Shown: positions 38,410 through 49,708, counted from the stretch's first letter. The stretch: DNA of 64,000 nucleotides from Candidatus Heimdallarchaeota archaeon (GCA_021399345.1 JAAFKI010000010.1:1-64000), one strand, 5' to 3'. The notes: a model not told the origin generated them from the letters alone. Numbers and translations are program-made.

Positions 38410-39441
38410 TTGGTGGAAAAGATGGTAGACATGAAACAAGATGATTCTAATGAAACAAGCTCCCTTGATGTAACAAAGAAGAATCGTTTTGTAAAGACTC
38501 AAAATTTCTTTTCAAAAATTAATGAAAAAATAACTCCTGCTTTACCTTATCTGAAAAATAGATACCTGAGATATTCTGTTTCTTTCGTCCTTCTAGGACT
38601 TGTAGTTTATCTTTACATTCTTTTTGAAACATTTCGTGAAGAAGAGAAAGCAAAGTTTCTATCCATCCCAATTCCTACGGCTGCTCTTGTTCCTATGGGT
38701 TTAGTGTTTGCTCTTATCATGGTTCTATATGTTTCGTGGGATGATCCTTTTTTCAAGAAATACAGAACCCCTGGTTTGTATATGGTTATCTTAACAACTG
38801 TTTTTTATGCATTAATTTTTTCAGGTATAGATACCTTTCTTTTTGATTTAGGAATAGCTAGATGGCTAACAAAACTAACTGGAACTATAGTGTCTTCTTT
38901 ATTGATTGCTTTTGGTATGAATATTAGTGATGTTACTTGGTTAACAACGAGTTATATGACTAAAATTGATTTTATGACAGCTCCTAGTGGAGAAGCCGCA
39001 ATACTCATTGATGCTAGGTGTAGTGGTATTCATTCCCTTACAATCTTTACAGCCATATTCCTAATCATGTTATTTGAAGCAAGAAAAAGACTACGTTGGA
39101 ATTATAGAACAGGACTTGTTACATTAATTGGAATTTTTGGAACCTACTTCATCAATATTTTACGAATTATCATAGTAATTTCATTATACTACTTCTATGG
39201 AAGAGAGGTTGGAGAACCAGTACATAATTACCTCGGCTACATTATGCTTATTTTATGGATACCTGTTTTCTGGTTATTTATACTTCCTTTGAGTGAGAAA
39301 AAGGAGATTAGAGAACAAAGAAAACAAAAACGATTAGAAAGAAAAAAGAAGAAAAAAAAGAAAAATCGCAAAATAAGAACAGAAAACGTAGAAGAAAAGA
39401 CCTCTGAAAGCGATATTGATGACTCTAGTTCTTCTTTATAG
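38410..39441 (+). CDS. Exosortase/archaeosortase family transpeptidase
   Basis: IDARCSGIHS (Cys), NILRI (Arg) and VHNYLG (His) in a multi-TM protein. Confidence 0.88.
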   Translation: MVEKMVDMKQDDSNETSSLDVTKKNRFVKTQNFFSKINEKITPALPYLKNRYLRYSVSFVLLGLVVYLYILFETFREEEKAKFLSIPIPTAALVPMGLVFALIMVLYVSWDDPFFKKYRTPGLYMVILTTVFYALIFSGIDTFLFDLGIARWLTKLTGTIVSSLLIAFGMNISDVTWLTTSYMTKIDFMTAPSGEAAILIDARCSGIHSLTIFTAIFLIMLFEARKRLRWNYRTGLVTLIGIFGTYFINILRIIIVISLYYFYGREVGEPVHNYLGYIMLILWIPVFWLFILPLSEKKEIREQRKQKRLERKKKKKKKNRKIRTENVEEKTSESDIDDSSSSL

Positions 39442-40581
39442 ATTTTCAAAAACCATTTTTGTTTTTTCTGCAGTATTTTGCCATGAAAGCTGTTTTACTA
39501 CTTCCTTAGACTTTTTCTGAATTTCCTCAATCATCTTTGGATTGTTATGGATTTCAATTGCTTTTGCAGCAAAATGGTCAACAGATCTAGGTGTGATTAT
39601 CAAAGTATTCTTGTGGTCGAAAGTATCTGCTTCAGGAGTTGTTAATACAGGTGTTTGACATGCAAGAGCTTCAAGTAAGACTAAGCTCATCCCCTCATGA
39701 CTAGATGGTAGTAAAAATAGATCTACAGAACTGAAAAAAGTATTCTTTCTATAATTGTCGTATATGTATCCGTAATCTATAATATTCTCTTTTAACCCCA
39801 GCTTATTAATCTGGTTTAATATTTTCTTTCTTGAATTCAAATCATCTCCTGCAATGAGCAATTTGACTTCAGGTATTTTTTCTTTAATTTTCTTAATTAT
39901 TGGCAGAATTAAATGAGCTCCTTTTCCTGCTGTCATTCTTCCAAGGAACCCTAAAACCAATTCATTTTCCTTCTTATTGTAGATCTTTTCGTCTGTTTTG
40001 TAATGAATTCTTGAATCTACACCATTTGGGATGATAGTTATTTTTTCTTCTTCAATAGAGTAACATTTAACTAATTCCTCTTTAATGGCTTCACTAACTG
40101 CTATTAAATGACTGGCTCTTTTTAGAATTCTTTTTTCCACGAATTTCAATAATGGAAATAGAAGACGAACCCTTCGTTCAACCCAACTTAATTGTTTGAA
40201 AGGTAATTTGTCAACTCCTCGTTTTTCCCTGCTAAAAGTGGTATGAACGGTTTCAACAATGGGATATTTGTTTTTAATTCCTAATGACGATAGTAGATTC
40301 ATATTTCCTTGAACTACATCGGGATTTAGTTTCTTAACAATTTCTTTTGACCTCTTCCAGTAGTTTCTAGAATAGAAATATCTTGAGGAAGAGGTTTCAA
40401 TTAAGGATAAAAATGGTACTTCTATTTTTCCATTAGCTGATTCACAATCCTTAGTTGCTGAGATAATATGTGCTTCCCAATCTCCTTCTTCGTTTAAGAT
40501 CTTGGCCAATTGGAAACAATAAATCCAAGTTGCTCCCCTTCTGTATTCTTGAGTTAGAAAGCATACTTTTTTCTTATTCAT
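39436..40581 (-). CDS. Glycosyltransferase family 4
   Basis: IPNGVD, FLGRM...KG and PSSHEGMSLVLLEALA motifs. Confidence 0.92.
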   Translation of the reverse strand: MNKKKVCFLTQEYRRGATWIYCFQLAKILNEEGDWEAHIISATKDCESANGKIEVPFLSLIETSSSRYFYSRNYWKRSKEIVKKLNPDVVQGNMNLLSSLGIKNKYPIVETVHTTFSREKRGVDKLPFKQLSWVERRVRLLFPLLKFVEKRILKRASHLIAVSEAIKEELVKCYSIEEEKITIIPNGVDSRIHYKTDEKIYNKKENELVLGFLGRMTAGKGAHLILPIIKKIKEKIPEVKLLIAGDDLNSRKKILNQINKLGLKENIIDYGYIYDNYRKNTFFSSVDLFLLPSSHEGMSLVLLEALACQTPVLTTPEADTFDHKNTLIITPRSVDHFAAKAIEIHNNPKMIEEIQKKSKEVVKQLSWQNTAEKTKMVFENL

Positions 40582-40585
40582 TATA

Positions 40586-48565: not shown

Positions 48566-48574
48566 GTGAATAAA

Positions 48575-49708
48575 ATGGATCCTCTAAAAATTGTTCAAGT
48601 TACTCCTTTCTTCGGTTCAAGAAGTTATGGGGGCACTGAAAGATACGTGAGTAATCTTTCAACTGAACTTGCAAATAGAGGTCATCAAATTGATGTTTTT
48701 ACAACTAAAAATAGTACCAAAGTCCCCTACCAGAGTTATTACAAGAACATGACTGTTCACCGATTCTATAGTCCATGGAATGTTTTTGGTATTAATCCTG
48801 CATGTTTTATGTTTCATAAAATGCTCCAACTGAAGGATATTGACGTGTTTCATGTTCATTCCTATATATACTTCACAACTATTCAAGCTGCTTTAACTAA
48901 ATTACTTAAGAGAACTCCCCTACTTTTACACATTCATGGAGGCGTAGGAAGACCCCCATACAAAACAGGATTCTTAAAGGAATTTGCAAAACTATTTTAT
49001 GATTATACTTTAGGAAAATTTGTTCTATCTCAAGCAGATATAATTGCATCTGTTAGTTTACAAGATTCAAATTTGTTGGAAAAAACAATTCATTACAATC
49101 TCAATAGGATTATTATCGTAAATAATGCAATTAATCCAGAAGATTTTCCCGAGATTTCACCTGTTTTGCAGAAGGAAATTGTGATTTCATATATTGGAGA
49201 TTTGGAACCATGGAAAGGCATCCTCTATTATTCAAAGGTCATAAATAGGGTACTTAAACAGACAAAAAATATTTCTTTTTGGTTTGTGGGAAATGGGTCA
49301 CTTTTCTCTGCTTTAAAAGATAAATTTGAAGAAGAAAAACGAGTAAAACTATTCGGAGCTATAGATCACAAAGAAATCCCCAAAATTTTAGAAAAGACAC
49401 ATATTTTAGTTCAACCTAGTTTCTGGGAAGGTTCTCCTACTACAATAATCGAAGCAATGGCAATGGGTATTCCTGTTGTTGCTTCCAATATTGGTGATAT
49501 TCCTAGACTTTTGAACTCTGGTGAAGATGGCATATTGTTTGAAGCCGGGAATGAAAACCAGTTAGAGGAAATAATCCTAAATGTTGCAAAAAACTATGAT
49601 GAGCTAGTTGATACTGCAAGAAAAGCAAGGAGCAAAATCAGAAAAGACTTTGCTTTTAAGAATGTTACAAATCAAATTGAGGATTTGTATTATAAATTAG
49701 TTTCGTGA
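48575..49708 (+). CDS. Glycosyltransferase family 4
   Basis: YGGTE, HVH, WKG and EGSPTTIIEAMA motifs; AGGTGA site before ATG 48575. Confidence 0.92.
   Translation: MDPLKIVQVTPFFGSRSYGGTERYVSNLSTELANRGHQIDVFTTKNSTKVPYQSYYKNMTVHRFYSPWNVFGINPACFMFHKMLQLKDIDVFHVHSYIYFTTIQAALTKLLKRTPLLLHIHGGVGRPPYKTGFLKEFAKLFYDYTLGKFVLSQADIIASVSLQDSNLLEKTIHYNLNRIIIVNNAINPEDFPEISPVLQKEIVISYIGDLEPWKGILYYSKVINRVLKQTKNISFWFVGNGSLFSALKDKFEEEKRVKLFGAIDHKEIPKILEKTHILVQPSFWEGSPTTIIEAMAMGIPVVASNIGDIPRLLNSGEDGILFEAGNENQLEEIILNVAKNYDELVDTARKARSKIRKDFAFKNVTNQIEDLYYKLVS

Follow-up and report, generated by a model that had tools for sequence, protein, structure and literature searches.

What does a membrane-bound sortase do among genes for building glycans? 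The question is raised by positions 38,410 to 49,708 of a 64,000-nucleotide stretch of DNA (the window; bases 1-64000 of contig C53) from a heimdallarchaeal genome of 3.27 Mb in 199 contigs, 88.6% complete, whose closest protein relatives carry the names Candidatus Heimdallarchaeota or Heimdallarchaeaceae in their source records. An initial annotation had proposed that ten genes found here, which include a sortase (ArtX), glycosyltransferases (GTs), a deacylase and putative amine-adding enzymes, might form a functional analogue of eukaryotic glycosylphosphatidylinositol (GPI) anchoring. To our knowledge, no acceptor chemistry has yet been established for exosortases and most archaeosortases.

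Comparison with related genomes divides the ten genes into two sets. Judged by sequence and gene order, an accessory module consists of ArtX, three family 4 GTs (GT4a, GT4b, GT4c), a family 2 GT (GT2), an ArnD-like deacylase and a polytopic membrane protein (TM559), and lies on both arms of a trio made up of a BpsA-like gene, a pyridoxal phosphate (PLP) decarboxylase gene and a YkgJ-type gene. ArtX and the glycan genes probably work together on the cell surface, since both come and go together in evolution. We read the locus, with a probability of roughly 0.55, as the counterpart, in an archaeon, of the exosortase/exopolysaccharide loci of bacteria, with lipid-linked aminosugar chemistry of the Arn type.

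ArtX and its distribution among Heimdall genomes

ArtX belongs to the exosortase/archaeosortase superfamily. It scores above the cut-offs of PF09721 and TIGR04178 (family scores are in bits against the curated cut-offs of Pfam and NCBIfam models, and matches of locus proteins were listed at E <= 0.01), is polytopic with six or more hydrophobic segments, and has a conserved Cys/Arg/His set, C204, R225, R252 and H272, that is invariant in 18 of 18 aligned family members. Public annotation already labels the gene "exosortase/archaeosortase family protein". The best subfamily match is ArtC (TIGR03762), at 39 bits below its cut-off of 100; ArtA (TIGR04125) is not among the nine NCBIfam families that match ArtX at the listing threshold, and the heimdallarchaeosortase model NF045528, which needs 130 bits, gave no match there either. 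On these profile scores ArtX belongs to no named subfamily, and the classification by hidden Markov models that the initial annotation had called for reaches the superfamily, with no subfamily or CTERM model above its cut-off.

We found 49 homologues, each at least 41% identical to ArtX, and a scan of genome contigs for distant relatives returned 29 loci, 27 of them in Heimdall-type metagenome-assembled genome records and two of them weak bacterial exosortase matches. Sequence comparison thus places ArtX in a second, unnamed clade of the exosortase family that is confined to a few Heimdall genera and is new here. The real start of the protein is probably an ATG 12 nucleotides downstream of the annotated one, because the closest homologue has 339 residues. 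Orthologues range in length from 308 to 418 residues, and several carry lineage-specific insertions of about 30-50 residues before or after the helix of the catalytic Cys (alignment columns 247-276 and 326-376). A PF09721 profile search missed the known orthologue of one relative (G025).

Our comparison set comprised 60 relatives of the same class, 30 from the same family (f1, genera g1 to g5) and 30 from five other families, making 61 genomes and 16 genera with our own included. Across this set ArtX proved not to be the general sortase of the organism. A single-sortase genome, as suggested by a genome search with PF09721, was ruled out by a match to NF045528 at 260.6-260.9 bits, a 242-residue protein encoded at C199:1619-2347 on the minus strand. 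This heimdallarchaeosortase exceeds its cut-off in 58 of the 61 genomes and in all 16 genera, including every one that lacks ArtX. Together with its Heimdall-CTERM signal (NF045529) it is the nearest system by organism group and shares its superfamily with ArtX, but it is another gene, near-universal, and adjoins the DNA polymerase II large subunit gene rather than glycan genes. The TIGR04178 signature matches both proteins and BLASTP finds no significant similarity between them; these genomes carry two very different sortases. Annotation by Pfam alone overlooks the near-universal one, to which the PF09721 genome search is blind.

The glycan genes have nearly the same distribution as ArtX. ArtX is present in every genome of g1 (24/24), g2 (2/2) and g3 (1/1), absent from g4 (0/2) and g5 (0/1), and present in g6, a genus of family f2 (1/1); weak matches (E 1e-5 to 9e-9) occur in three of the seven f5 genomes, and the remaining families have none. 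The ArnD-like gene was found in 23/24, 2/2, 1/1, 0/2, 0/1 and 1/1 genomes of g1 to g6, respectively, and in no other family, and TM559 in 24/24, 2/2, 0/1, 0/2, 0/1 and 0/1, again in no other family. Over the 61 genomes the presence/absence patterns of the three genes are nearly identical, and in f2 (G031) the ArnD-like and GT4b genes are still adjacent.

Gene order points the same way. We compared 19 same-family loci around ArtX, and in 18 of them ArtX adjoins GT4a; the contig of the 19th ends within ArtX. The whole run through the BpsA-like gene is conserved in 15 loci, at protein identities of 41-97%, and the ArtX-GT4a adjacency persists at 41-60% identity despite rearrangement nearby: among the same loci a pair of genes that includes the Ribophorin I homologue is inverted in three, and about 3 kb is inserted in several. 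On the far arm, TM559, GT4c and the methionyl-tRNA synthetase (MetRS) gene occur in that order in all four loci examined (G001, G023, G025 and G011). Such an arrangement is not chance, since ArtX and GT4a stay adjacent in 18 of 19 loci whose proteins are 41-97% identical.

A natural deletion or insertion separates the module from its surroundings. The ArtX-less genome of g5 (G028) keeps the Ribophorin I, orf137, ThiF, acetyltransferase and ribbon-helix-helix (RHH) genes, followed by YkgJ and decarboxylase genes divergent from the BpsA-like gene and then by MetRS, and it is without both the block running from ArtX through GT4a, ArnD-like and GT4b to GT2 and the TM559-GT4c block. Like G028, G027 and G030 have the trio with neither a sortase nor GT genes near it, and YkgJ adjoins the decarboxylase in all three; the two complete g4 genomes retain only the BpsA-like gene divergent from decarboxylase and YkgJ. 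The BpsA-like gene is present in 30 of 30 f1 genomes, the sortase-less ones included (g4 and g5 at 49-51% identity), and in f5 and f6, where it stands alone, at 30-40% identity. From this conservation across the family the trio is taken to be an older, separable unit. The initial annotation had tied both the glycan genes and the amine genes to the sortase, and held that unlinking in relatives would speak against it: the link to the GT genes is borne out by co-variation over 61 genomes and by the absence of both blocks from G028, and the amine genes are separable, an outcome that in part goes against the scheme.

Comparative gene content suggests that the module, inserted downstream on either arm of the trio, was gained or lost as a unit, and such unit-like behaviour with a sortase is new here. 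Gain and loss could not be told apart because a tree of the BpsA-like protein (24 rows, rooted on f6) left the genera unresolved, with seven open forks and long branches for G026 and G028. The co-variation lends weight to the idea that a product of the module is used by the sortase.

Predicted enzymes and candidate cargo

The glycosyltransferases resemble known families without matching a specific function. GT4a has no hydrophobic segment and was called cytoplasmic. GT4b scores 109.7 bits with the BshA model TIGR03999, below its cut-off, and its nearest PDB chains are BshA (3mbo/2jjm, at 1.5e-21) followed by PimA and MshA (to about 3e-17), a similarity at family level only. In GT2 the hydrophobic segment begins at residue 245. 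Its best NCBIfam matches, MftF, EpsD and PgaC, are all below cut-off and are not dolichyl-phosphate hexose synthases, so a role as donor synthase is not specifically supported. The deacylase has solely ArnD proteins as library relatives and aligns with ArnD itself (PDB 8t0j, E 1.3e-6) with the metal-site motifs DVDT and HxxxH kept; its score marks it as a homologue but not an equivalog. No signal peptide, transmembrane (TM) or hydrophobic segment was found in the protein, and for that reason it is predicted to be cytoplasmic and should act on that side of the membrane.

TM559 has ten or more hydrophobic segments and by sequence matched no entry of Pfam, NCBIfam or the PDB, the last searched both by single sequence and by profile. 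Six relatives were found among 1.84 billion representatives, and a word-indexed search found 39, all at least 51% identical and Heimdall-type where named. The AlphaFold2 model is poor (pLDDT, the predicted local distance difference test score, 59; pTM, the predicted template modelling score, 0.42; the N-terminal 146 residues below 50). Foldseek with this poor model nevertheless returned GT-C proteins for all of its top 15 hits (DPY19, STT3, ALG12, AglB and AftA; E 4e-3 to 0.1, TM scores 0.23-0.36). An aligner independent of Foldseek (VIA) gave STT3B (Z 10.1, 345 residues aligned), DPY19 (9.6, 352) and AftA (9.6, 321), with Pmt4, Pmt1, ALG12 and AglB also at the top; Z values for STT3B, DPY19, AftA, ALG12 and AglB are 8-10 over 320-350 residues, whereas unrelated rows align at most 140 residues. 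PF20176 is matched by 5 of 22 homologues (best E 2.3e-5), Atlas neighbours include clusters with PMT_2 (12% of members) or DUF6541 (13%), and the residues D33 and D61, which follow the first helix, do not vary. On this evidence TM559 probably has a GT-C fold.

The trio can be described in similar terms. The BpsA-like protein belongs to the BpsA family by its PF01861 (BpsA_C) score and its similarity to BpsA (PDB 5xnc, E 2.1e-34 over residues 41-298), and branched-polyamine synthase activity is putative. The decarboxylase scores 248.1 bits with the lysA model TIGR01048, below 297.9, and 173.3 bits with TIGR03099, the exosortase-A-associated PLP decarboxylase, below 478; the gene is also present without ArtX in G027, G028 and G030. 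A LysA role is possible for it, since it is the sole fold-III homologue found in the genome (tblastn E < 1e-6). The trio probably makes an amine, as an aminopropyl-type or polyamine product. A search of the 88.6% complete genome found no S-adenosylmethionine (SAM) decarboxylase of the AdoMet_dc family (PF02675), the other SAM decarboxylase family not having been searched, and there are hints that the trio may transfer aminopropyl groups without decarboxylated SAM. A second, shorter BpsA-like paralogue lies at C169:233747-234508.

For candidate cargo we collected open reading frames (ORFs) of at least 120 residues that end in an uncharged segment of 14-24 residues and a basic cluster. Our genome has 142 of these tail-anchored ORFs (43 per Mb), 118 of them with a hydrophobic N-terminus; in ArtX-less G027, of which 1.6 Mb was sampled, there are 58 (36 per Mb). 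Tails with [IVL]-x-E-[FYL] before the helix are unevenly distributed. They number 15 in our genome (3.27 Mb), 13 of them on proteins that seem extracellular, and two in 0.4 Mb of ArtX-positive G001; the 1.6 Mb of G027 has none, against about 6-7 expected from the density in our own genome. The 15 include four NosD/beta-helix proteins, four SBBP beta-propellers, one family-5 solute-binding protein, one LVIVD-repeat protein, one E-set protein and two large proteins with no Pfam match. ArtC is the PEF-CTERM sortase, according to passages of PMC6098224, and the best match of ArtX to ArtC together with the PEF-like tails is a subfamily hint for the pairing. The likely cargo of ArtX is this set of about 13 surface proteins, a pairing that we infer from tail sequences.

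Two other tail features were set aside. Tails with [KR]-T-S-[FY] (24 in our genome) were rejected as ArtX cargo, since six occur in the 1.6 Mb of G027; they give the best sub-threshold Heimdall-CTERM matches and, with their presence in that ArtX-less genome, were assigned to the universal sortase. A D-x-Y-P-L motif was rejected as a sorting signal: it is found where a paralogous beta-helix domain ends, and in 9 of 45 cases the protein stops some 10 residues further on with no anchor. The secreted beta-helix paralogues in question end in Y-x-I-D-G...D-x-Y-P-L (45 occurrences), and about half run on into a TM-plus-basic tail.

From these parts we infer the following scheme, in which every chemical step and the acceptor are conjectural. 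The GT4 and GT2 enzymes would work on the cytoplasmic side, assembling a short glycan or glycolipid on a lipid carrier in the membrane, and there the ArnD-like enzyme would strip the N-acyl group from a lipid-linked aminosugar in the manner of ArnD. After flipping, the GT-C-like TM559 would transfer a sugar on the outer face. ArtX would cut the C-terminal tails of about 13 dedicated secreted proteins, in which [IVL]-x-E-[FYL] is followed by a TM helix and then a basic stretch, and pass these proteins to an acceptor at the surface that the module itself makes or modifies. The remaining tail-anchored proteins would be sorted by the separate, housekeeping heimdallarchaeosortase.

Locus layout and neighbouring genes

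All ten ORFs lie exactly at the positions and in the orientations first described (Table 1). The family calls made then all hold, with the GT-C-like call for the 559-residue protein only moderately supported. An RHH regulator gene directly upstream of ArtX, between the acetyltransferase gene and ArtX, which looks unannotated, was absent from that description, as was the heimdallarchaeosortase on C199.

Table 1. Features of the locus, numbered from the first base of the window; scores in bits, with cut-offs where available.
Feature	Position	Strand	Family match
Hexapeptide sugar acetyltransferase (NeuD/PglB/VioB-like)	37260..37829	+	PF00132 87.5; TIGR03570 103.2 (cut-off 160.8, not reached)
RHH (CopG-type) regulator, 69 aa	38034..38243	+	PF01402 39.3
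ArtX, exosortase/archaeosortase-family	38410..39441	+	PF09721 46.9 (cut-off 25.7); TIGR04178 47.9 (cut-off 23)
GT4a, GT4 glycosyltransferase	39436..40581	-	PF00534 98.6; PF13439 77.6
ArnD-like (carbohydrate esterase 4, CE4-type) deacylase, 294 aa	40586..41470	-	NF011923 79.1 (cut-off 382)
GT4b, BshA/MshA/PimA-like GT4	41504..42742	-	PF00534 133.8
GT2 with C-terminal membrane region	42717..43706	-	PF00535 107; also PF13641, PF13632
YkgJ-type CxxCxxCC protein	43709..44239	-	PF03692 43.6
Fold-III PLP decarboxylase (diaminopimelate-decarboxylase-like)	44255..45526	-	PF02784 131
Divergent intergenic spacer, 121 bp, between PLP decarboxylase and BpsA-like	45527..45647	.	
BpsA-like with C-terminal zinc ribbon	45648..46808	+	PF01861 158.2 (cut-off 27)
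TM559, polytopic membrane protein with C-terminal soluble domain	46886..48565	+	
GT4c, GT4 glycosyltransferase	48566..49708	+	PF00534 102.3

ArtX converges on GT4a with an overlap of 6 bp. The minus-strand genes, in the order PLP decarboxylase, YkgJ, GT2, GT4b, ArnD-like and GT4a, are spaced from a 26-bp overlap to a 33-bp gap, and both arms are presumably transcribed from the 121-bp divergent spacer. Because no gap exceeds 33 bp and one overlap measures 26 bp, this spacing suggests joint transcription of the GT genes and the trio in our own genome, and a functional tie between the glycan module and the trio is therefore not to be dismissed.

The RHH protein is 87-100% identical within the genus, 71-73% in g2, 61% in g3 and 66% in ArtX-less G028, a conservation far above that of its neighbours. 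The acetyltransferase gene is retained in G028, which is without the module, and by gene content the two genes form a stable backbone outside it. Further glycosylation genes occur in the neighbourhood, namely the Ribophorin I homologue, the sugar acetyltransferase and a nucleotidyltransferase. The Ribophorin I homologue (33785-35878, plus strand, 697 residues) carries numerous N-x-S/T sequons, a signal peptide and a single TM helix, and its coiled-coil tail is long and charged. The gene invariably precedes orf137 (35971-36384, plus strand), which encodes a soluble protein of 137 residues with no family match, 56-98% identical across the family, for which an ESM Atlas search gave no usable match. 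The STT3/AglB gene is on a separate contig (C84). Within the window, SAM synthetase is encoded 20 kb upstream (24629-25795, minus strand; MetK-type domains PF00438, PF02772 and PF02773) and MutS and MutL at 28204-32725. An Rfam scan of positions 33000-53000 gave no family match.

Competing explanations and known systems

Several observations weigh against the exosortase-type reading that we prefer. No flippase, initiating phosphoglycosyltransferase, polymerase or exporter is present at the locus, which is therefore not a complete exopolysaccharide locus; the same absences predict that the product of the module is probably short, rather than a long exopolysaccharide. The GT-C assignment depends on a low-confidence model. 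The tail class was defined post hoc on our own genome and compared with half of one ArtX-less genome; 2 of its 15 members, a CMD-family protein and an ABC-2 permease, are false positives, and the CTERM models give no match above cut-off in the genome (PEF-CTERM, TIGR03024, best 18.3 against 23, with nine matches at E <= 1; Heimdall-CTERM best 19.9 against 24). In f2 the ArtX-like gene of G031 lies among Arf, EutA, KaiC, SPFH and Rad51 genes, with the ArnD-like and GT4b genes on another contig, and the weak f5 homologues have no glycan neighbours, so that the linkage of sortase and glycan genes is confined to three genera. Related genomes are not independent, and the co-variation comes down to about three events, namely one absence each in g4 and g5 and an unlinked presence in f2. 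Finally, treating the trio as unrelated to the GT genes may be wrong, given their apparent co-transcription.

Some of these points would fit a variable island for surface glycan or protein glycosylation (an O- or N-glycan or a glycolipid), built by the GT4, GT2, ArnD-like and GT-C genes, with ArtX sharing the region and acting independently. Glycan islands are commonly variable, other glycosylation genes lie nearby, the linkage is gone in f2 and f5, and ArtX is convergent to the GT operon and outside it. We nonetheless find the absence of coupling doubtful, because two separate blocks flanking the trio are both absent along with ArtX in G028, ArnD-like and ArtX have the same genus pattern even in f2, where they are unlinked, and ArtX and GT4a have stayed adjacent at 41-60% identity while the region was rearranged. 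A different view would assign all ten genes to a single pathway whose product is an aminopropylated or polyamine-bearing glycan, the trio being integral to it and the sortase peripheral. The seemingly shared transcription unit on both arms and the order conserved in 15 loci agree with it, and the missing AdoMet_dc gene would fit a SAM-dependent carboxyaminopropyl transfer followed by decarboxylation, but that negative covers one family of SAM decarboxylases, the trio persists without GT genes nearby in three genomes, and BpsA-like orthologues stand alone in f5 and f6. We regard this pathway as highly improbable.

The GPI-like scheme of the initial annotation goes beyond coupling. In it the module makes a glycolipid whose free amine belongs to a de-N-acylated aminosugar or else to an aminopropyl arm supplied by the trio, and the ArtX thioester is resolved on this amine to give a C-terminal glycolipid anchor. 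Enzyme classes and predicted membrane sides (GT4b, cytoplasmic deacylase, membrane GT2, GT-C-like protein, Cys transpeptidase) do mirror GPI synthesis; all these enzymes co-vary with the sortase, the ArnD-like/GT4b pair is retained even in f2, trio and GT genes run in the same direction and are tightly packed, the genome has two inositol-1-phosphate synthase genes, and an amine-nucleophile model exists for ArtA (passages of PMC7157517). The product, though, is a conjecture drawn from gene content, and G027, G028 and G030 have the trio but no sortase. In GPI the amine of glucosamine is not the attachment point, and the locus has no ethanolamine-phosphate transferase. None of its GT4 proteins matches the PIGA domain (PF08288) at E <= 0.01, and the same holds for all ten locus proteins with PF08288, PF02585 and PF01650. 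Homologues of PIG-L and C13 are located elsewhere: four PIG-L-family genes (PF02585) on C123, C163, C169 and C6, and two weak Peptidase_C13 matches (PF01650; 28 and 23 bits) on C55 and C113. A new amine acceptor, which the scheme had called for, is not required, because a phosphatidylserine decarboxylase homologue (102.8 bits) is present and an ethanolamine lipid, the ArtA-type acceptor, may thus be available. On balance a GPI analogue seems unlikely, and it is more unlikely still that, in the Heimdall lineage, ArtX transfers cargo specifically to the free amine of an acceptor built by the co-varying genes, either a lipid-linked aminosugar or an aminopropylated glycolipid, with the trio possibly supplying an aminopropyl arm.

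The reading as an exosortase-type locus has described precedents, and the statement that no described locus combines these families was too strong. Passages of Haft et al. (2006; PMC1569441) place bacterial exosortase genes (EpsH, XrtA) in loci that also hold genes of GT group 1 and for polysaccharide deacetylases, and these PEP-CTERM/exosortase systems are also alike in having many cargo proteins with a motif-TM-basic tail. In our locus, NCBIfam exosortase-associated GT4/GT2 and PLP-decarboxylase families appear as sub-threshold matches. It differs from the bacterial loci in its archaeal host, in a sortase of no named Xrt or Art subfamily, in having a GT-C-like protein, a PEF-like rather than PEP tail and an ArnD-like cytoplasmic deacylase rather than PF01522, and in the absence of a chain-length regulator, sugar transferase (PF02397) or exporter.

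Among archaea, the ArtA/PGF-CTERM system of Haloferax and Methanosarcina has the same enzyme family and Cys nucleophile, and its synteny with amine-lipid headgroup enzymes is a precedent for reading function from neighbours. According to passages of PMC7157517, it was the artA-pssA-pssD neighbourhood in Methanosarcina that pointed to HvPssA and HvPssD, both of which proved necessary for ArtA-dependent cleavage and lipidation; for an ethanolamine lipid as the ArtA nucleophile the paper offers a speculative model rather than a demonstrated linkage. ArtX differs in having no TIGR04125 match at E <= 0.01 and in neighbours that are GTs and an ArnD-like gene, not PssA/PssD, and the phosphatidylserine decarboxylase homologue sits on another contig.

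The Arn pathway of Gram-negative bacteria comprises ArnC (a GT2), the deformylase ArnD and ArnT (a GT-C enzyme). Our locus likewise pairs a membrane GT2 with an ArnD homologue and a GT-C-type transferase, a combination that could make a lipid-linked N-acyl aminosugar, deacylate it and transfer it outside. It differs in a much lower ArnD score (79 against 382 bits), in a GT2 nearer MftF, EpsD and PgaC than ArnC, and in having no ArnA, ArnB, ArnE or ArnF; three GT4 enzymes and the sortase have no Arn counterpart, and the acceptor cannot be lipid A. The likeness to eukaryotic GPI synthesis, in enzyme classes and topology (GT4, de-N-acetylase, GT2 donor synthase, GT-C, Cys transpeptidase), is one of analogy only, as the deacylase is ArnD-like and not PIG-L, the transpeptidase an exosortase and not C13, and an ethanolamine-phosphate transferase is missing. 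Of the kinds described, the bacterial exosortase/exopolysaccharide locus comes nearest; the nearest chemistry is that of Arn, and the nearest archaeal precedent is ArtA with PssA/PssD.

Eukaryotic GPI enzymes and transamidase have been reported to derive from Asgard homologues (2026; passages of PMC12872458), and the PIG-L and C13 genes elsewhere in our genome may be the Asgard GPI-enzyme homologues discussed there. If that origin holds, the locus described here would be a separate, convergent system. A full-text literature search found no paper joining exosortase with Heimdallarchae and none joining glucosaminyl with archaetidylinositol, and passages of PMC6098224 contained no link between archaeosortases and Asgard archaea. 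New here are the ArtX clade, its gain or loss as a unit with a defined glycan module of seven genes, and a candidate cargo signal.

Natural gain or loss ties one sortase to a compact seven-gene set and a short list of candidate cargo, so that the acceptor question becomes testable. Heimdall-group Asgard archaea are the group most discussed as relatives of eukaryotes, and whether they also came by a convergent, sortase-based way of attaching a glycolipid or glycan matters for reconstructing the ancestral cell surface. If true, a sortase-based glycolipid anchor convergent with GPI would exist in close archaeal kin of eukaryotes, beside true GPI-enzyme homologues.

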